DNA from: a virus
Taxonomy: Duplodnaviria; Heunggongvirae; Uroviricota; Caudoviricetes
Length of the DNA: 41,474 nt
Reading direction: 5' to 3' (one strand)
Virus record (IMG/VR): IMGVR_UViG_2734482774_000012
Span: 1-41,474 of that record
Below the pieces are notes generated by a model. The model saw only the letters and a list, made by a program, of their open reading frames with translations. It was not told the origin of the DNA and ran no database searches. The translations under genes and the position numbers were made by a program. Positions 6,644 through 41,002 of the stretch are shown here, piece by piece (position 1 is the first letter of the stretch; each line of letters opens with the position of its first letter).

Positions 6644-7117
6644 CTAGAACGGAATATCCGAATCGTCGAAGTTCATAGGTGGTTCGCTGTGATTCCCATG
6701 CTGCTGAGATTGCTGTCTTTGTTGCTGGCCGTTATTTCGCTGAGGTGAAGACTGTTCATTGCCTCCTTGCTTGCCACCAAGCATTTGCATGGTTACACCA
6801 ACGCCTACGATAACTTCGGTAGTGAACCGATCCTGTCCGCTTTGATCCTGCCATTTTCTTGTCCGCAATTTGCCTTCAAGATAAACCTCTGAGCCTTTTC
6901 GCAGATATTCGCTGGCAATTTCTGCCAGTTTCCCGCTCATTACCACACGGTGCCACTCCGTCTGCTCCTTTTGCTCTCCAGTTTGCTTATCACGCCATTG
7001 TTCTGACGTAGCAACTGTAAGGTTTGCAAATGCCGTTCCTGATGGTGAATATCTGATTTCTGGATCATGCCCAAGGCGACCAATAATGATCACCTTATTT
7101 ACGCCTCTACTTCCCAT
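6644..7117 (-). CDS. ssb: Single-stranded DNA-binding protein
   Basis: OB-fold N-terminus ([18 protein letters not shown]...), Gly/Gln-rich linker and acidic C-terminal tail ending DDSDIPF, as in bacterial and phage SSBs. Confidence 0.85.
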
Positions 7118-7825
7118 TTATGCCGCCTGTTTTAGTTCGTTAACTCTGATGTTCATTACCTGGACGCATTTAGCCTGCGCCTCCTCGTTGCCAGCCATTA
7201 ATTGCCAGTCACGCTGATAACGCTCGATGAGTTTTTTCTTGTCAGTTTCTGTTGATGCATAATCGCTGAAGTCTTTCAGGATTTGTTCGCAGTCAACCGA
7301 TGGAGATTTCTGGTTGGTATTTTCTGGTGATGGTTTGTTATCTGATGCTGGGATTGCCCATCCCGGCAGCGATGGAGGGAGCCAGTAAAATCCTGTTCCA
7401 TCCTTCAGTTTTGCCCTGTGCCACCCATGCTTTTTATCGAGAGATGTTTGTGCGAAACCTTCCTCAAGGTTATACAGATACCGACCGATTCCCCACTGAA
7501 CGGCAGCACGCTTCATTGCACCTGAACGACCACCTTTGACGGCTTCTACCTGCGTGTTTTCAGCAGCATCCCATTTGGTTACCCATTCGGAATCAATCTT
7601 GATTGATATGCCGCATTCAACTCCGCCGTTGTTGGGAATATCGCGGTATTCATTGCGCCATCCTGCTTTGCCGCAAACATCGTCCAGGCGTTTCATGATT
7701 GCCCGGTTCGTGACATAAGCCAGCACCATAGCCCACACTTTTCCATCGCGTGTTTTACCGCTTTGCTGTATTCGCCATTCGATATCTTCAGGGCTGAATG
7801 GCTCATCGAATTTATTCAAATCCAT
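7118..7825 (-). CDS. Rad52/Rad22-type single-strand annealing protein
   Basis: Central GGRSGAMKRAAVQWGIGRYLY-type motif characteristic of the Rad52 family; sits with ssb and the exonuclease as a recombination module. Confidence 0.7.
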   Translation of the reverse strand: MDLNKFDEPFSPEDIEWRIQQSGKTRDGKVWAMVLAYVTNRAIMKRLDDVCGKAGWRNEYRDIPNNGGVECGISIKIDSEWVTKWDAAENTQVEAVKGGRSGAMKRAAVQWGIGRYLYNLEEGFAQTSLDKKHGWHRAKLKDGTGFYWLPPSLPGWAIPASDNKPSPENTNQKSPSVDCEQILKDFSDYASTETDKKKLIERYQRDWQLMAGNEEAQAKCVQVMNIRVNELKQAA

Positions 7826-33207: not shown

Positions 33208-34479
33208 ATGGCTACTTGGCGACAAGGAATCAACTCAGGCGGCTTTCTAGCTGGTATCGGTGGGCAAAACTCAAATGCGCCAAAGGCAAGTGATGTAAGT
33301 GAGGCGTTGGCCTATATTCGCCAGAACAACGAAATGGAGCGTTCAGGTCGCAATAACATCGGCCTTCAGGCGTTGCAGGGACTTGGTAGTGTCGCTCAAA
33401 CATATCAAGCTGCAAAGCAACAGGAAGCGGATGCTGCATTCCAAAAAGAATATGCGGCAGCCATCCAGTCCGGTGATCGACAGCAGGTTCGAGATCTGAT
33501 GACCAAATATCCTGGTCAATTAGAGAAGATTCAGTCTGGTATGAAGTGGGCAGACGAAGACCAGCGCAATTCTATCGGCACCTTAGCGGCTGGCGCACGC
33601 CTTGCGTCATTGTCTCCAGAAGCAATGCAATCATGGCTGCAAAACAACGCCAAGGAACTGGCGCGCGTCGGTGTTGACCCTAACAGCGTTGCTCAGATGT
33701 ATCAGCAGAACCCTTCAGGATTTGGTGAGTTTGTTGATCACCTTGGGATGGCTGCTCTCGGTCCGATTGACTACTTCAATGTTCAGGACAAGATGGCTGG
33801 TCGCCAGCAGGAGCAGCAAAGAATTAACGAAACAATCCGTAATAATGACATGACAAATGCCAGAGGGTGGGCAAGCAACAATATTGCGCAACAAAATGTC
33901 AATCTTCGTCGGATGGAATTAGAGGACAAGAAATACGACAGACTCATCGCAAATGAAACTAATGCCTTAAAACTTGCTGAATTGCAGGACAAGAGATTGC
34001 AGAATCAGCAAGCTATGGAGCAGGCAAAGCGAGATAAGGCCGATGCGTACAACTCTGGAATGGATAATCTCTCCAGAACGATAGAGACGGCTACAAAAGT
34101 TCTTAATAGCCCAGGATTCACGGGATATTTCGGAACAAACCTAAACCCACTATCGAGTAGATTCATTCCAGGAACAGAGGCTGCTGATACAGAAACTCTG
34201 GTTGACACACTGAAATCTCAGGGATTCTTATCTGGCATTCAGCAGATGAAAGGGATGGGGGCTTTAAGTAATGCCGAGGGGCAAAAGGTAATGGATGCTA
34301 TTGGTAGTTTGTCCCCAAATCAGTCTGAAAAATCAGCCAGAGCAGCTATCAAAACAATCATAAAAACCACTGAGATGGCTCAGAAACGTATGCAACAGAA
34401 ATACGGGAAGGACATACAACCGTCTCAACAGCAGCTTTCTGATGATGACCTGATTAATAAATATCTCGGAGGGCAGTAA
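33208..34479 (+). CDS. Ejection protein (P22 gp20-like)
   Basis: Positional analogue, 423 aa. Confidence 0.55.
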
Positions 34480-36593
34480 TGGCCTATAGTCGCGAACAGT
34501 TGATGACGGCGTTAAGGAATGCTGATGCTGCCGGCGATACTGAGGGAGCACGTCGCATTGCTCAGATGCTGTCTTCTGGTGATCAATCCACTCAAAACCA
34601 ATCGCAGCCAGAAGAACAATCTCTGGTAGGAAAAGCCACTGACTGGCTCACTGGTGGTCAAAGCGCAGGGCAAATTGCAGAACAGGCTGGCCGTGGTCTG
34701 GTAAACATACCATTTGACGTATTGCAGGGTGGCGCAAGTCTGATTAATGCAATCAGCCAGGGACTTGGTGGCCCCAAGGTTTTGGATGATGTCTATCGTC
34801 CAGTCGATCGACCGACAGACCCTTACGCGCAAGCCGGTGAAACAATTGGTGGGTATCTCCTGCCAATTGGCACAGCGGCAAAAGCTGCTGGAGCGCCAGC
34901 AAAGCTCGCAGGAGACATCGGTTCCGCAGGAAACATGATTGCCGGTTCTCTTGCTGATGCTGCAAATCAGGAGGGTGATTTTGCACAAAATGCTGCCATT
35001 AACGGTGGTATCAATATTGGTGCTCAAGGCGTTCTTTCAGGTGTCGGGCGCGTTATTGCGCCAAGGGTTTCACAGGCTCTTGGTGGTGCAGCACTGAATT
35101 CTGCTAATGATGTTTCCATGATGGCAAAGTCAGGTGCTGGGCGTCAGTCAATTGCCAGTCAGGCCGCTAATGTGTCCGAAGATGTAGCAAAAGCGGCTGA
35201 GTCTGCTGGAATTGATATAAACGCATTAACACCGGGAATGCGATCTGGAAGTCGTGGAATTGCACAAGCCGAAGGCGCATTGGCATCAACACCAGGGATT
35301 GTTCAGGATGCCCATCAGGCAGCATTTAACGAAATATCATCAAAGTTAAGTCGAAACCTTGATGAATTTGGGGCCGCATCTGGAACTGCATCAGAAAAAA
35401 GTGCGGCTATAAAACAAAGGATTCTTCAAAATCTTGATCAGATGAAGGATGCCGAGCGCGCGGCATGGGATGACGTGCGGTCAACAATGCCAAATCAAAA
35501 AGCAAGAATGCTAAATGGTAATGCCGTTATTCAGGCAGAGCGATCTGCTGGCATACCGCTTACTCCTGAAATGAAACAGTTTGTTCAGGCAAACAATCAA
35601 GGTGGAGTAACATTTGATGGCATGAAAGCATGGAGAGCGAAATTTGCTGATGCGGAGCAAAAATATAAGCGTAGCGGAGAGGCAAATGCGGCAAGGAGAG
35701 CAGGGGAAATACGCCGGGCAATTACTGATGATATGCGCACAATGGCGGAAAACGGCGGATTTCTTGATGACTGGCAAAAAGCTAATGATCTGTCTAAAGC
35801 GAGGTTATCAGCACAAGAGAGTGCAGAGTCTGTTTTCGGGCGTGATTTGGCAACAGATGCACTGATTACGAATGGAGTAAAATCTCTTCAATCATCGTCA
35901 GCTAAAGGTCTTAATGGTCCTGCTGGATTCCATTCTATGATCCGCGCGCTGCCAGAATCAGAGCGTGTTCCTGCTATATCATCAATGTTGCAAGATGCTA
36001 TCTCGCATGGTGTACGTGGTGGCAAAGCTGATGCAGCAGGAATTAACCATATCGCAGGGATACTTACCCCACAAAATGTAAAAGCCATTAGCAGATATTC
36101 CTCAGAACTCGGAAGAATTGCTGATGCATATGGCACTCTTGCAAGAGCAGCAGTGAAACCTCAGCAGTATATTGAAAGAACAGGGAGAACTGCCAATGTA
36201 CTACGCGATCTGGATGCCGGTTTATCCAACGTCACATCAACAGTGTTAAATGCAATTGCCAACTCAACATCAGGTGCCATTGTTGGTGGAGCAGGAGGGG
36301 GCATTGCAGGCGCTGTCGCAGGTGCTTTAGTTGGCGCCGGGTTAAAAGGTGCTGTATCTAAAATTGCCACCACGCGTAGCGGTCGATATGCGATAGAGAA
36401 AGCAGTTCAAGAAGCCACGAAAGCAGTAAGAGCTGGCGGAAGTAAAGAAGCATTAGCGGCGGCGGAACGCAGATTTATGGCAAATAAAGCCGCCGTAAAA
36501 GCAATACGCGATGCTATTGGTAGCGATGAATTCAATCGCTTGTCGAGAGCTGGTATTGTCGCCTCGTTAAGCGGTATGAATGAATATGAATAG
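34479..36593 (+). CDS. Ejection protein (P22 gp16-like, 704 aa)
   Basis: Positional analogue; Ala/Gly-rich segments; last gene of the rightward structural operon. Confidence 0.55.
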
Positions 36594-36595
36594 CT

Positions 36596-37081
36596 TTATC
36601 TAATGTTGCTGCTACTGTTGCATGTGACGGTGTTTCCAAATCCTGAATTGCAGTTTGTATATGTGTCAACGCGTGTTGGGTAAGGTTGAGTTATAACAGG
36701 CTGGCGCGCTTTTTGCTCGATCGCTTGCATTGTGTTTACAGCCTGATAATTCAATAAAGCCTGCTGGAATGCTTGGCTTTGCGCTATTTGTTGGGCTTGT
36801 TCTTGGCTTTGTAATTGAACATAAAGATTCTGAAGCTCAAGTCTTGCCTGTGCGTCACTTATCTTGCCTTCATCGACACCTTGCCCGAGCATCTTCGCAG
36901 CAAGGACATACAGCTTAGGTGTTGGTGCTGATGCCATGCGTGAGTCGTTCTTCACGCTGGCATCAAGGCAATTAGCCATATCACTAAGCTTTGGATAGCG
37001 TTGTTCGCAACTTGCTTGGTAGTCACTTACTTTTGCGCATCCAGCCAGCAGAAGCGGGATAATTAATAGTGATTTTTTCAT
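36596..37081 (-). CDS. Predicted outer-membrane lipoprotein (161 aa), unrecognised
   Basis: Signal peptide with canonical lipobox LLAGC, +2 residue Ala; Q-rich helical middle; Cys-containing C-terminus; last gene of the mnt-side operon. Confidence 0.65.
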   Translation of the reverse strand: MKKSLLIIPLLLAGCAKVSDYQASCEQRYPKLSDMANCLDASVKNDSRMASAPTPKLYVLAAKMLGQGVDEGKISDAQARLELQNLYVQLQSQEQAQQIAQSQAFQQALLNYQAVNTMQAIEQKARQPVITQPYPTRVDTYTNCNSGFGNTVTCNSSSNIR

Positions 37082-37106
37082 AAAGTTATTTATAAAATCC
37101 TTTCTA

Positions 37107-37421
37107 TTATTTATCAGAAGTTAGATTGTAATAATTGGTATAAGCTGAAATTGACTTCTGGCATGCTTCAAGAAACTCCTGTGGATTCATTCCAAGTCTT
37201 GCTTGCTCTGTGGTCAGAAAACGCTGTAAGAACTCATCTCCGCCAGGCATTTTTGTTGATTCTTGAAATGTTGCCATTTGTTTGATTGTGCCGCACATGC
37301 CAGCAAATTTCGAAGTTATCATGAGTTCTTGCAGGCCTTTAAGATCGCCATTATCTGATTTTTGTTTGGCGCAAACTATTGTAGAGAAGAACAATATTAA
37401 CAAAATAGCGATGCGTTTCAT
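37107..37421 (-). CDS. Predicted exported protein (104 aa), unrecognised
   Basis: N-terminal signal peptide MKRIAILLILFFSTIVCA; ATG overlaps the mnt stop (ATGA). Confidence 0.55.
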   Translation of the reverse strand: MKRIAILLILFFSTIVCAKQKSDNGDLKGLQELMITSKFAGMCGTIKQMATFQESTKMPGGDEFLQRFLTTEQARLGMNPQEFLEACQKSISAYTNYYNLTSDK

Positions 37422-37669
37422 TCTTCACCGTTGCCATGCATACATTTTAACTTCTCAACCTCATGCTCAAGCTCTATCAACCGCGATGCTATAGTTGCAA
37501 TATCTAGTGCTTGAATATGTTTATTTTTTTCAGTCCATGCCTCAAGTGCTGCTACCATCTCAGCATTTAATGAACGAGAATTAGCCTCAGCCAGCTCAAT
37601 AAGACGTTCCTTTATCTCTACAGGAAGCCTCAGATTCACTTGAGGGTTTTTGTACTTACGATCAGACAT
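37418..37669 (-). CDS. mnt: Mnt-like ribbon-helix-helix repressor
   Basis: N-terminal NLRLPVEIKERLIELAEANSRSLNAEMVAALE is an Arc/Mnt/MetJ-type RHH motif; position and orientation match P22 mnt relative to arc-ant. Confidence 0.7.
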   Translation of the reverse strand: MSDRKYKNPQVNLRLPVEIKERLIELAEANSRSLNAEMVAALEAWTEKNKHIQALDIATIASRLIELEHEVEKLKCMHGNGEE

Positions 37670-37773
37670 CGGCGCATCCTGAATAATTATTTACCACAGG
37701 ATATGTAGGTATCTATTGACTATCAATGCGTACCTAAATACTATGTATGCGTACCACATACAAAGGAGCAAAA

Positions 37774-37920
37774 ATGAAAGTTAAGACATTAAGGATGCCA
37801 GAATGGCTGGAAAAGGCTTTGGAGCAGTCCGCGAAAAAGGATGATCGGTCGTTCAGTAATGAGGTATTGAGGAGACTAAAGGAGTCAGTAGCTAAGGATG
37901 GAATTGTTTGTCCAGAATGA
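37774..37920 (+). CDS. arc: Arc-like ribbon-helix-helix repressor (48 aa)
   Basis: Manually translated MKVKTLRMPEWLEKALEQSAKKDDRSFSNEVLRRLKESV...; RHH pattern; AAAGGAG RBS; immediately upstream of ant. Confidence 0.6.
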   Translation: MKVKTLRMPEWLEKALEQSAKKDDRSFSNEVLRRLKESVAKDGIVCPE

Positions 37921-37986: not shown

Positions 37987-38910
37987 ATGAAAAGTATAGC
38001 AACAGCAGTATCTACTATCAACGTGCCATTCCACGGCGCAGAGCTTTATGTCGTCAATCACAACGGTGAGCCGTACACCCCAATGAAACCTATCGTTGAG
38101 GGAATGGGGCTAGACTGGAAATCTCAACATAAGAAGATTTCTCAACGCTTCTCGAAGGGTATGGTGGAAATCACCATACCTTCTGCCGGTGGGGTGCAAG
38201 CCATGATTTGTATGGCTTTACGAAAATTGGCAGCTTGGTTGAACAGCATCAGTCCTAACAAAGTCCGCCCTGAAATCCGCGACAAGGTAATCCAGTATCA
38301 GGAAGAGTGTGACGATGTGCTCTACGAATACTGGACTAAAGGCTATGTGGTTAACCCGCGCAAAGCTAAAAAGGCGTTGCCTGGTAAAATCACCACTGAA
38401 CAGCAGGAAGCTATTAAACAGCTCGTCATGAGTCGCGGTCAGTCTCTGCCAAAAGAAAAACAGGCGAAGGCGATGATCACCATGTGGTCGTCACTGAAAT
38501 CCCATTTTGGATGTTCGTACAAAGAAATTAGTGAGGAGCAGTTTACCGAAGCACTGTCACTTGCAGCTCGAGTTCCACTTGAAGGTGAGTTCATCGGCAA
38601 ACAAGAGAAGAAAACCAACGAGCTTTCTGCAAAAGAAGCAAACAGCCTTGTATGGTTATGGGATTATGCCAACCGCTCACAGGCATTATTCCGCGAACTG
38701 TATCCGGCATTAAAACAAATTCAATCGAACTATTCCGGCAGATGCTACGACTACGGTCATGAGTTCTCGTATGTTATCGGAATGGCGAGGGACGTTTTAA
38801 TCAATCACACACGAGATGTTGATATTAATGAGCCAGACGGACCAACGAATCTTTCCGCATGGATGAGACTTAAGAATAAAGAATTACCTCCTTCAGTACA
38901 TAACTACTGA
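37987..38910 (+). CDS. ant: Antirepressor Ant (307 aa)
   Basis: Position after mnt/arc; size and N-terminal domain typical of P22-type antirepressors (recollection). Confidence 0.75.
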   Translation: MKSIATAVSTINVPFHGAELYVVNHNGEPYTPMKPIVEGMGLDWKSQHKKISQRFSKGMVEITIPSAGGVQAMICMALRKLAAWLNSISPNKVRPEIRDKVIQYQEECDDVLYEYWTKGYVVNPRKAKKALPGKITTEQQEAIKQLVMSRGQSLPKEKQAKAMITMWSSLKSHFGCSYKEISEEQFTEALSLAARVPLEGEFIGKQEKKTNELSAKEANSLVWLWDYANRSQALFRELYPALKQIQSNYSGRCYDYGHEFSYVIGMARDVLINHTRDVDINEPDGPTNLSAWMRLKNKELPPSVHNY

Positions 38911-39010: not shown

Positions 39011-41002
39011 ATGACAGACATTACAGCCAATGTGATCGTATCGATGCCTTCGCAACTTTTCACTATGGCTCGTTCTTTTAAATCAGTAGCCAATGGCAAA
39101 ATTTATATCGGTAAAATTGACACTGACCCGGTAAATCCTGAAAACCAGATTCAGGTTTATGTGGAAAACGAAGACGGTTCTCACGTTCCTGTTGAACAGC
39201 CAATCATCATTAACGCTGCTGGATATCCGGTATATAACGGACAGATTGCCAAATTCGTAACTGAGCAAGGCCATTCTATGGCTGTTTATGATGCGTATGG
39301 TTCTCAGCAGTTCTATTTTCCGAATGTGCTGAAGTATGACCCAGATCAGTTTGCATCAAAGTTAGCTTCAGATTTAGGAGCGTCAATGATCGGTACATCT
39401 AATGGTGATACGGTTCAGCAGTGGCTTGATAAATTCCCCCCATTATACGCTGAAGAATTTGGTGACCTATCTGTTACAGACGCAACAACAATACTACAGA
39501 ATGCAATAGATTCGGCATCATTACAATGTCGTGAATTAAAAGTAAGGACGCCAATTATAAATGTTAGGCAACTCAAGCTACCCAACAATACCATTTTGAA
39601 TCTTGGTATGTGCACTTTAAGACAAATATCTAATACAAATAAGCCGTTAATCAGAAACGATGTGTTTGGATATACTGATAAAGTTCATACAAACTCAAAT
39701 ATTACTATTATTGGTGGGGTTCTTGATTTTAATGGTTCAAACCAGTCTGACACTACGGCAACAGGAGAAGTTAATGTCGGCTGTGCATTTTTTGGGGTGA
39801 AAGGCCTTCATTTTCGTGGCTCAACAAAATTCATTAATGCCAGACGTTATAGTTTTTTTGCTGCAAATTGTGCAAACATTACTTTTGATGATCCGGTTGT
39901 TGAAAACGACCCGGCAATACCAAGTAGCAATAAAGATGGCTTACATTTTTGCGGAAAAGTTTACGGTATTTCAATAAAAAGTATTTATGTTTATAACCCA
40001 GAAGATGATGCACTAGCTATAAATGCTGATGATGTAGATCATGGTGGGGAATGGACTCGCGCTAACATTACTGGAGCAATAGATAATGTTTGGGTTGGGC
40101 AAGTTCGTGTGGATGGTCCTTCATCGCATAACGGTGTGCGTTTGCTAAGTGCGTCACCCAACACACCTATTTCAAATGTGAAAATTGATTCAATTGTAGG
40201 TAAAGTAGATAATTATTTTCTTAATATTCAACCATACGGTTTAGGTACCTCATCGGTATACCACAATATTGATATCGGCATTATAGGAGGAATATATTCT
40301 GTCAGAACCAATCCTGCATTTACTCATGGCATGGTAAATATCTACACTATGAAGCCGAACCCAGCAGTTTTGAATAATATTCATATTGGTCAGATTTTTC
40401 GTGATCAGGAAATTGGCGATGGACAGGATCGTCCGACTGTACAGTTATGTGTTGAAAACACTTCTGTTACATTTGATAAAATTGTCGAGCAGAATTGTGC
40501 TAATGATGCTGTCGTTAGGGTAACGGAGATAGGACCTGCGGCTTTTATAACTCTAAACGAAGCATACAAAAAATCCACCCGAACCTTAACTCCTGGTGTG
40601 TATGGTTCCATCGTAATTGTAAGTAATGTTAACGACAATCAACTTGAACACCTTAAAATTGGATTCAATTCTGCAGATAGACTACGTCACGTTGTATTGG
40701 CAAGGTCTGTAAAAATTAAACGTTTGGATATGTTTAGTGATGGTTCAGCAGACAACATCCCTCTGTATCTTGAATCATCCCAGGTAACTAATCTTAATTG
40801 GAATAGTAGTGTTCCATCCACTTATCAATTTACTGCACATCGCTATACGCTTTCAGGTGAATCGTCTGCTGTAATATTTGAACGCCCTGCTGTTACAGGT
40901 GGGAGTACTACAGAACGCCCAGTAAATGCAATAATTGGTGACAGTTTCTATGATACGACAACGAATACTCGTGTGAACTGGAATGGATTTAATTGGGTGT
41001 GA
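39011..41002 (+). CDS. Tailspike: P22 gp9-type head-binding domain fused to a divergent beta-helix receptor-binding domain (663 aa)
   Basis: First ~115 residues ([17 protein letters not shown]...[38 protein letters not shown]...[13 protein letters not shown]...NVLKYDPDQ) closely resemble the P22 tailspike N-terminal domain; the remainder has parallel beta-helix composition but does not resemble P22 gp9. Confidence 0.85.

Follow-up and report, generated by a model that had tools for sequence, protein, structure and literature searches.

Two predicted envelope proteins encoded beside mnt in a P22-like Escherichia coli prophage and their possible role in superinfection exclusion

The window analysed here is the complete 41,474-nucleotide stretch of the virus record IMGVR_UViG_2734482774_000012 (Caudoviricetes); it contains a P22-like prophage integrated in Escherichia coli and matches part of the chromosome of E. 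coli EC17GD31 with 99.9-100% identity. Two small genes located between the gene of a gp16-type ejection protein and the tailspike gene are the subject of this study. The original prediction had described them as lying on the same strand directly downstream of an Mnt-like repressor gene, the first encoding an exported protein of 104 amino acids (aa) whose ATG overlaps the mnt stop codon as ATGA, and the second a 161-aa lipoprotein with the canonical lipobox LLAGC. The open reading frame (ORF) calls and the sequence agree with this gene order, strand and overlap. The features of the two genes are:

37107-37421, minus strand: gene of the 104-aa exported (periplasmic) protein as predicted, PHROG 19844
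36596-37081, minus strand: gene of the 161-aa predicted lipoprotein, at the sieA position and convergent with gene 16, PHROG 6067
37418-37421, minus strand: ATGA overlap between the ATG of the 104-aa gene (37421-37419) and the TGA of mnt (37420-37418)
37082-37106, minus strand: 25-nucleotide junction between the 104-aa and lipoprotein genes, with an AAGGA Shine-Dalgarno sequence 16 nucleotides (nt) before the lipoprotein ATG
37368-37421, minus strand: predicted Sec-type signal peptide of the 104-aa protein, residues 1-18, MKRIAILLILFFSTIVCA, based on hydropathy and the -3/-1 rule
37037-37051, minus strand: lipobox LLAGC of the lipoprotein, residues 11-15, Cys15 being the predicted lipidated first residue

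Both genes are real and under purifying selection. The ratio of nonsynonymous to synonymous substitution rates (dN/dS) of the lipoprotein gene amounts to 0.035, 0.020 and 0.064 relative to the alleles of VSe13, Gally and O104:H4, respectively, and that of the 104-aa gene to 0.17 relative to its 72%-identical allele. The ATGA overlap with mnt is kept in other prophages for both the 100%- and the 72%-identical alleles of the 104-aa gene. Translational coupling to mnt, originally proposed for both genes, is therefore retained for the 104-aa gene and withdrawn for the lipoprotein gene, which starts 25 nt further on and behind a poorly spaced Shine-Dalgarno sequence. The junction is too short for a terminator plus a promoter, and a search for a separate lipoprotein promoter within or after the 104-aa gene yielded no convincing candidate. 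For these two reasons the lipoprotein gene is most simply interpreted as the third gene of the mnt operon in the window. Its stop codon lies 2 nt from that of the convergent gp16-type gene (36593), and no terminator was detected 3' of it (z=-1.3). The Pmnt promoter of P22 is active in lysogens, and the operon of the window would presumably be transcribed in lysogens from its own Pmnt.

The export signals were judged by pattern and hydropathy checks across both families, from which we infer the localisation of the two proteins. The 104-aa protein starts with MKRIAILLILFFSTIVCA followed by KQ, with a predicted cleavage between VCA and K. Across the family, the N-terminus is hydrophobic in all 124 members of 95-115 aa, 117 of the 124 contain exactly two cysteines in the mature part, and the GenBank record of the 48%-identical homologue Kapi1_059 states 'signal residues 1-22' according to DeepTMHMM. 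The N-terminus of the lipoprotein, MKKSLLIIPLLLAGC followed by A, fits a positively charged n-region, a hydrophobic h-region and a lipobox ([LVI][ASTVI][GAS]C) within the first 40 residues; such a lipobox is found in 87/87 full-length family members with an invariant Cys15 (alignment A2). Thus, the export features originally assigned to both proteins recur throughout their families. At position +2, next to the predicted lipidated cysteine, 78 of these 87 members have A, 7 have V and 2 have T, whereas D does not occur. According to the Lol sorting rule of E. coli, lipoproteins without Asp at +2 are transferred to the outer membrane, which predicts outer-membrane anchoring of the lipoprotein. 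No transmembrane (TM)-like segment was found in either mature part, the maximum of a 19-aa Kyte-Doolittle window being 0.65 and 0.47.

The relation of this locus to the superinfection-exclusion gene sieA became apparent from its relatives. The P22 record shows the gene order mnt, orf59a, terminator, PsieA and sieA, with sieA convergent with gene 16. A 934-nt segment of P22, comprising mnt, orf59a, the terminator, PsieA and the 5' untranslated region (5'UTR), is found upstream of the lipoprotein gene in 19 IMG/VR prophage loci with 92-98% nucleotide identity; the similarity breaks off 7 nt short of the sieA start, ca. 10 nt short of the lipoprotein ATG. Judged from these alignments, the replacement of sieA by the lipoprotein gene in the 19 relatives is a clean ORF swap. 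A stretch of 28 identical nt, TCATGGTATCCTGCACAAAACTAAGGAG, precedes both P22 sieA and the lipoprotein gene of VSe13. For a broader view, 85 lipoprotein loci (5 GTDB genomes and 80 IMG/VR contigs) were sampled; the sieA-type UTR lies upstream of the lipoprotein gene in 71 of them, and the junction type of the window, in which this UTR is lost, is a minority variant present in 9-10 of the 85 loci (~10%). Diverged genes of the 104-aa family (Kapi1_059 and those of loci L051 and L055) stand behind the same sieA-type UTR, CATGCACAAAACTAAGGAGGTTG. A tblastn search with P22 SieA of the window and all retrieved loci, including the 85 lipoprotein loci, matched P22 alone, in line with the original statement that neither protein resembles SieA. 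Moreover, the 41 SieA-carrying phage records do not overlap at all with the 5 lipoprotein or the 2 104-aa records. From the shared UTR and the lack of co-occurrence it follows that one lysogen-expressed slot takes up SieA, the lipoprotein or a 104-aa family member as alternative cargo.

The window itself deviates from this arrangement, as the lipoprotein gene directly follows the mnt-coupled 104-aa gene and the UTR is lost; the 104-aa gene therefore sits at the orf59a position of P22. The sieA position, previously assigned to both genes, is consequently better founded than claimed for the lipoprotein gene, which in relatives replaces the sieA ORF behind the P22 promoter and 5'UTR, and not applicable to the 104-aa gene of the window, although its diverged homologue Kapi1_059 does hold that position. 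As far as the searched literature shows, neither the precise exchange of the sieA ORF behind the sieA promoter nor the wide distribution of the 104-aa family has been described. Both families are already catalogued as hypothetical proteins, and prophage envelope morons as well as candidate exclusion proteins are of a known kind. In the record of phage CUS-3 (CP000711.1) a 'boundary sequence' (bsq2) is annotated at the mnt gene (6924-7244), and the conserved sieA-type 5'UTR, GCACAAAACTAAGGAG, behaves like a boundary sequence for cassette exchange.

The lipoprotein family comprises 94-108 clusters at 90% identity, all from Enterobacterales, with genera including Escherichia, Citrobacter, Serratia, Klebsiella, Cronobacter, Yersinia, Pectobacterium, Xenorhabdus, Tatumella, Morganella, Providencia and Proteus. 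Of 5426 complete E. coli genomes, 186 (3.4%) encode it, among them an O104:H4 outbreak strain and the adherent-invasive E. coli (AIEC) LF82. Of ca. 50,700 phage records, five contain the lipoprotein family, namely Gally, vB_EcoP-720R6, VSe13, MS2 LVA and Brookers, and two contain the 104-aa family. A convergent gp16 homologue follows directly downstream of the lipoprotein gene in 81 of the 85 loci, from Escherichia to Providencia, Yersinia and Tatumella. The upstream partner is more variable and consists of a P22-type mnt (44 loci), a window-type mnt (9), the 104-aa gene (8-9), an opposite-strand 140-aa PEGA-like lipoprotein gene (16-17), the tailspike gene (4) or the gene of a 60-aa secreted protein (2). 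A co-variation of the lipoprotein with the gp16-type protein was considered and rejected, since the same lipoprotein (98-100% identity) adjoins gp16 variants of 704, 665 and 615 aa. Among prophages with the same lipoprotein the gp16 length ranges from 608 to 788 aa and its sequence is widely variable. A distant homologue of the lipoprotein, P0125 (31% identical; L012:5001-5423, also in L013 and L014), has an LLAGC lipobox and shares with the lipoprotein a C-terminal cysteine-flanked GNTV motif. In its host phage, which is not P22-like, the gene runs on the opposite strand and is bordered by a Peptidase_S74 tail-fibre gene and by genes of large internal-virion-type proteins, a placement paralleling that of the lipoprotein gene between ejection proteins and tail fibre.

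The 104-aa family is distributed differently. An exhaustive profile search yielded 289 representatives at 50% identity, of which 206 scored E<=1e-10. Besides E. coli and Salmonella, members are found in Pseudomonas, Vibrio and Morganella, all annotated as 'hypothetical'. The allele of the window occurs in 18 of the 5426 complete E. coli genomes, including O104:H4 outbreak strains, and always together with the lipoprotein gene. Of 42 IMG/VR loci with homologues ca. 35 are P22-like, and in these the gene is paired with the lipoprotein gene, the 140-aa lipoprotein gene of Gally, a SocA/Panacea toxin-antitoxin-like module or the gene of a 122-129-aa secreted protein. Beyond the P22-like phages, a Mu-like phage carries a member inserted on the opposite strand between its Mu F-like and tail genes, and other members lie in early regions beside RecT/YqaJ. 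In a siphovirus contig with an Ig-domain major tail protein (L043:5462-6291), the gene of a 104-aa homologue (54% identical) comes directly after that of a 142-aa Mnt-like ribbon-helix-helix (RHH) protein and reads in the same direction; this contig carries an immI-like module with two neighbouring ant genes and the secreted protein outside P22-like phages. The idea that the two window genes form a functional pair was abandoned in view of their independent recombination and of the occurrence of the 104-aa family in Mu-like and siphovirus prophages.

Evidence for expression comes from prophage Gally of AIEC LF82, whose gene GALLYPH_13 encodes a protein 98.8% identical to the window lipoprotein and for which strand-specific RNA sequencing data are available (S1/S4 tables of PMC9928086). 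After overnight growth in lysogeny broth (LB), GALLYPH_13 reached 70 normalised counts compared to a prophage median of 15.6 (4.5x) (PMC9928086). Expressed as log2(fpkm+5), with fpkm denoting fragments per kilobase per million mapped reads, its level was 6.0-6.3 in LB, ~8 in B1/B6, and 10.3 at 1 h and 8.6 at 6 h in macrophages, relative to 3-4 for the silent neighbouring ejection-protein and structural genes of Gally (PMC9928086). The increase in macrophages versus LB corresponds to a log2 fold change (log2FC) of 2.55 (q=4.7e-27), and GALLYPH_14, the gene of the 140-aa lipoprotein, is induced even more strongly (log2FC 3.84) (PMC9928086). These data show that the lipoprotein orthologue is transcribed in the prophage state, from a sieA-type upstream region. 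The expected expression in lysogens is thereby borne out for the Gally orthologue (PMC9928086), and is presumed by analogy for the window operon. Searching the literature with the accessions and locus tags of the O104:H4 and LF82 genes returned no paper that names them, nor any expression data on the window operon.

Database searches assigned the 104-aa protein to PHROG 19844 (E=6e-63) and the lipoprotein to PHROG 6067 (E=3e-110), both labelled 'unknown function'. Pfam, NCBIfam and PADLOC scans of both proteins gave no informative match, a Pfam scan of 45 diverse members of the 104-aa family gave none at all, profile searches against Protein Data Bank (PDB) sequences produced no match below E=0.9 and Foldseek against BFVD none below E=0.45. 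The earlier impression that neither protein is recognisable thus persists, with no similarity to known exclusion proteins by sequence or fold search. An NCBIfam GspK match (E=8.6e-4, 18.9 bits versus a cutoff of 130) was dismissed because it covers only the Q-rich linker; the database name 'GspK' of P0041 stems from this linker match. According to hhalign the lipoprotein and the 104-aa family align solely in their signal peptides, and the two families are therefore considered unrelated.

The AlphaFold2 (AF2) model of the 104-aa protein, with a predicted local distance difference test score (pLDDT) of 76, consists of a signal helix and a three-helix bundle, the mature part having ca. 86 aa. Family members share the invariant cysteines C43 and C87, the motif FQESTKMPGGDEF and an invariant turn between helix 1 and helix 2 with F52, Q53, T56, G61, F64, R67, F68, E72 and R75. 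The most conserved loop of the family reads MPGGDEF (residues 58-64, window 37238-37252). A diguanylate cyclase of the GGDEF type was nevertheless rejected, as no Pfam GGDEF match was obtained and an 86-aa helical bundle compares with a domain of ca. 170 aa; the letters are coincidental. The lipoprotein model (pLDDT 61 overall, ca. 80 in the N-domain) is composed of a helical N-domain, a low-confidence Q-rich helix or linker and a C-terminal β-hairpin. Its cysteines C25 and C38 are invariant, and C144 and C154 bracket the C-terminal hairpin, only C154 being invariant (alignment A2). The invariant cysteines in both families would fit disulfide-bonded periplasmic proteins.

The most obvious reference system is SieA of P22, which acts from the inner membrane on the gp16/gp20 conduit; mutations that allow escape lie in the C-terminal portions of these two proteins, and the gene is present in only 22 of 66 P22-like phages (Leavitt et al. 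2024, PMC10883804), which leaves room for analogues. SieA and the lipoprotein resemble each other in the genomic slot convergent with gene 16, the predicted envelope location, the size (162-164 versus 161 aa) and, for SieA, the restriction to P22-like prophages; in the 19 relatives they also share promoter, 5'UTR and Shine-Dalgarno sequence, and they never co-occur. The window genes, like sieA, lie between gene 16 and gene 9, whereas PsieA and its 5'UTR are found only in relatives (the 19 lipoprotein loci and Kapi1_059). In contrast, SieA lacks a signal peptide and is integrated into the inner membrane by 3-4 TM helices, while the window proteins have predicted cleavable export signals and TM-free mature parts, lack the SieA motif FxRYPxEAxxFNK and show no sequence similarity to SieA types A-C. 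The product of P22 orf59a, whose position in the mnt transcription unit is occupied by the 104-aa gene in the window, is a 59-aa hydrophilic protein without a signal peptide and unrelated to the 104-aa protein.

Small outer-membrane lipoproteins which protect the cell from superinfection are encoded by several phages, e.g. Llp by T5 and Cor by phi80, N15 and HK022; they inactivate the FhuA receptor of siphoviruses. The window lipoprotein appears to share this format but is unrelated in sequence, the match to PHROG 1119 Cor (E=0.078) being confined to the signal peptide. Its target would also have to differ because P22-like phages use the O-antigen and an ejection-protein conduit. A mechanistic analogy is rather proposed with Ltp of the Streptococcus thermophilus phage TP-J34, a prophage-expressed lipoprotein that, as cited in PMC10883804, binds the tape measure protein and blocks DNA injection. 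Bor/Iss of phage lambda likewise belongs to the prophage-expressed outer-membrane lipoprotein morons; Bor, however, confers serum resistance, and no homology to the window lipoprotein was found in Pfam and PHROG.

On the basis of these comparisons we tentatively propose that both proteins are lysogen-expressed envelope proteins that block phage entry or otherwise exclude phages, a reading which we consider well possible without regarding it as established. Both genes would then represent lysogen-expressed cargo ('morons') of the P22-type slot between gene 16 and the tailspike gene, with products exported to the envelope. We infer the mechanism and target of exclusion entirely by analogy. The 161-aa protein would be processed as a lipoprotein, anchored to the inner face of the outer membrane and act as a positional and regulatory replacement of SieA. 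Considering the ORF-for-ORF swap, the near-exclusive occupation of the gp16-tailspike slot across genera and the placement of P0125, the lipoprotein would most likely function as a periplasmic, outer-membrane-anchored blocker of the ejection-protein conduit. The 104-aa protein is a separate and more promiscuous module, presumably made in step with Mnt via the ATGA coupling and exported by the Sec system as a predicted disulfide-stapled three-helix periplasmic protein. As the family is also carried by Mu-like and siphovirus prophages, a target specific for P22-type ejection is disfavoured. The invariance of the helix 1-helix 2 turn and the occurrence of the family in phages with three tail types point to a partner on the host side. 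This turn probably binds a conserved host envelope component, and such a partner would explain the presence in these other prophages; the protein would most likely provide a second, broader protection at the envelope level. In an extended and rather unlikely version of this scenario, the sieA slot alternates at least three unrelated envelope proteins, namely SieA in the inner membrane, a lipoprotein in the outer membrane and a three-helix protein in the periplasm, and every one of them would block the podovirus ejection conduit at a different layer. The 104-aa family would then constitute a widely distributed and hitherto unrecognised periplasmic anti-phage factor, acting via a conserved host component and protecting podo-, sipho- and myovirus lysogens across Gammaproteobacteria.

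Several observations weigh against a role of the two proteins in exclusion. Neither of them has sequence or fold similarity to any known exclusion protein, and the common recombination junction may reflect only the mechanics of cassette exchange rather than a common function. Upstream of the lipoprotein gene of the window, neither the promoter nor the UTR of the sieA type is present, and the spacing of the Shine-Dalgarno sequence is poor. In LB, expression of GALLYPH_13 remains just under the 5x cutoff applied by the authors for morons (70 versus 78) (PMC9928086). The very low dN/dS of the lipoprotein gene and its varied gp16 partners provide no signature of an arms race or of co-variation with a target, and the presence of the 104-aa family in phages with other tail types implies that its target cannot be specific for the P22 conduit. 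Finally, the rise of GALLYPH_13 in macrophages spans the whole right end of Gally and fits a host-interaction role equally well (PMC9928086).

The latter point leads to an alternative which we judge unlikely, namely that the two proteins are lysogenic-conversion factors for host fitness or virulence under macrophage, serum or bile stress, as lambda Bor/Iss. The induction of GALLYPH_13 in macrophages (PMC9928086), the presence of the lipoprotein cassette in pathogens such as the O104:H4 outbreak strains and AIEC LF82, and the strong purifying selection together with the invariant motifs, which match a conserved host-side target, are all in its favour. However, the induction is regional and includes all five right-end genes of Gally, among them mnt and the tailspike gene; the lipoprotein is also encoded in plant-, insect-, nematode- and fish-associated Enterobacterales (Pectobacterium, Symbiopectobacterium, Xenorhabdus and Yersinia ruckeri), which argues against a mammal-specific role, and its nearly exclusive residence in the P22-type sieA slot with the sieA promoter is more easily explained by a phage-related function. 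A further option, in which the two are orphan immunity-like proteins that travel as prophage cargo and give periplasmic protection against colicins/bacteriocins, lysozymes or peptidoglycan effectors of the type VI secretion system (T6SS), appears improbable. Even less do we favour a role during lytic development of the phage itself, as lysis or spanin accessory, virion-release or assembly factor. This highly improbable option would agree with the location of both genes between virion genes and with a weak PHROG match (E=0.058) between the N-terminus of the lipoprotein and an Rz-like spanin, which is confined to the signal peptide, but both genes run antisense to the late operon from gene 16 through the tailspike gene, belong to the lysogen-expressed mnt/sieA units and seem dispensable, as most P22-like phages lack them. 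The lysis cassette is located elsewhere, and the lipoprotein was rejected as a spanin because it has no C-terminal TM segment, because both the strand and the position of its gene are wrong for a spanin and because it matches solely in the signal peptide.

If either protein excludes phages, it would offer a handle on the poorly understood outer-membrane and periplasmic steps of podovirus DNA delivery and would aid in predicting which clinical E. coli resist P22-like phages used for therapy or typing. If the proteins serve host fitness instead, they would represent unstudied conversion factors in important pathogens.

The surroundings of the two genes correspond to those of an immI region of the P22 type within an integrated prophage:

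1 onwards: host gene of the aldehyde-dehydrogenase family, 417 aa, its ATG exactly at window position 1
1459-2619: phage integrase gene
34479-36593, plus strand: gp16-type ejection (DNA transfer) protein gene, 704 aa, PHROG 770 'DNA transfer protein' (E=1e-216)
37418-37669, minus strand: gene of an 83-aa Mnt-like Arc-family RHH repressor, first gene of the leftward immI operon, Pfam Arc (E=3.1e-10)
37698-37726, minus strand: Pmnt-like sigma-70 promoter candidate, TTGATA-17-TATCCT, for mnt, the 104-aa gene and the lipoprotein gene, from a consensus scan only
37716-37744, plus strand: candidate for a Pant-like promoter of arc-ant, arranged back to back with the Pmnt-like one
37702-37740: inverted repeat resembling an operator, with arms of 18 nt that are 78% complementary and its centre at the overlapping -35 regions
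37747-37920, plus strand: arc-like repressor gene, 57 aa, Pfam Arc (E=2.3e-5)
37987-38910, plus strand: ant antirepressor gene, 307 aa, Pfam P22_AR_N and P22_AR_C
39011-41002, plus strand: tailspike gene, 663 aa, with a P22 head-binding domain (Pfam Head_binding, E=1.7e-64), the right border of the slot

Since a host gene followed by the integrase gene opens the window, the prophage is in its integrated state and its left end is captured; the host gene is, judged from its size and its position beside the P22-type integration site, possibly proA. The window Mnt-like protein is 42% identical over 36 aa to the N-terminus of P22 Mnt and its gene has the position and orientation of P22 mnt; the RHH domain and the divergent promoter layout are present, and the Mnt C-terminal family PF11423 was not detected. 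The promoter/operator layout parallels the annotated Pant, Pmnt and operator of the P22 record, and the inverted repeat with the arms TATGTAGGTATCTATTGA and TCAATGCGTACCTAAATA is likely the Mnt/Arc operator. The ejection-protein genes gp7, gp20 and gp16 were identified by Pfam (P22_gp7 and Inj_translocase) and PHROG 770. In the 704-aa gp16-type protein, which had no match in the Pfam scan, residues 28-230 match a 'transglycosylase' PHROG (phrog_29864, E=6e-26) and residues 38-314 a 'lytic tail fiber' PHROG.

In phage Kapi1 (L064, 32628-33571), the gene Kapi1_059, which encodes the 104-aa homologue, and that of the 61-aa secreted Kapi1_060 flank the gp16-like gene. The Kapi1 gene 'hyp19' could not be deleted because flanking hypothetical genes on the construct were toxic in non-lysogens, and the O-antigen-modifying gene remained unidentified (PMC8787464). 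Kapi1_059 and Kapi1_060 could be these toxic flanking genes; the numbering of the re-annotated record prevents matching.

The slot between mnt and gene 16 of P22-like prophages is also a hotspot for other exported or membrane proteins, in keeping with the moron reading proposed above. Its cargo includes the 140-aa lipoprotein with an LLSGC lipobox and a weak PEGA-domain match, present in at least 16 loci and equivalent to GALLYPH_14 of Gally (L001:4121-4540), as well as signal-peptide proteins of 129 and 60 aa, a 112-aa multi-TM protein and the SocA/Panacea toxin-antitoxin-like module (L018:6800-7189, L032:4099-4281, L011:3166-3504 and L015:5978-6421).

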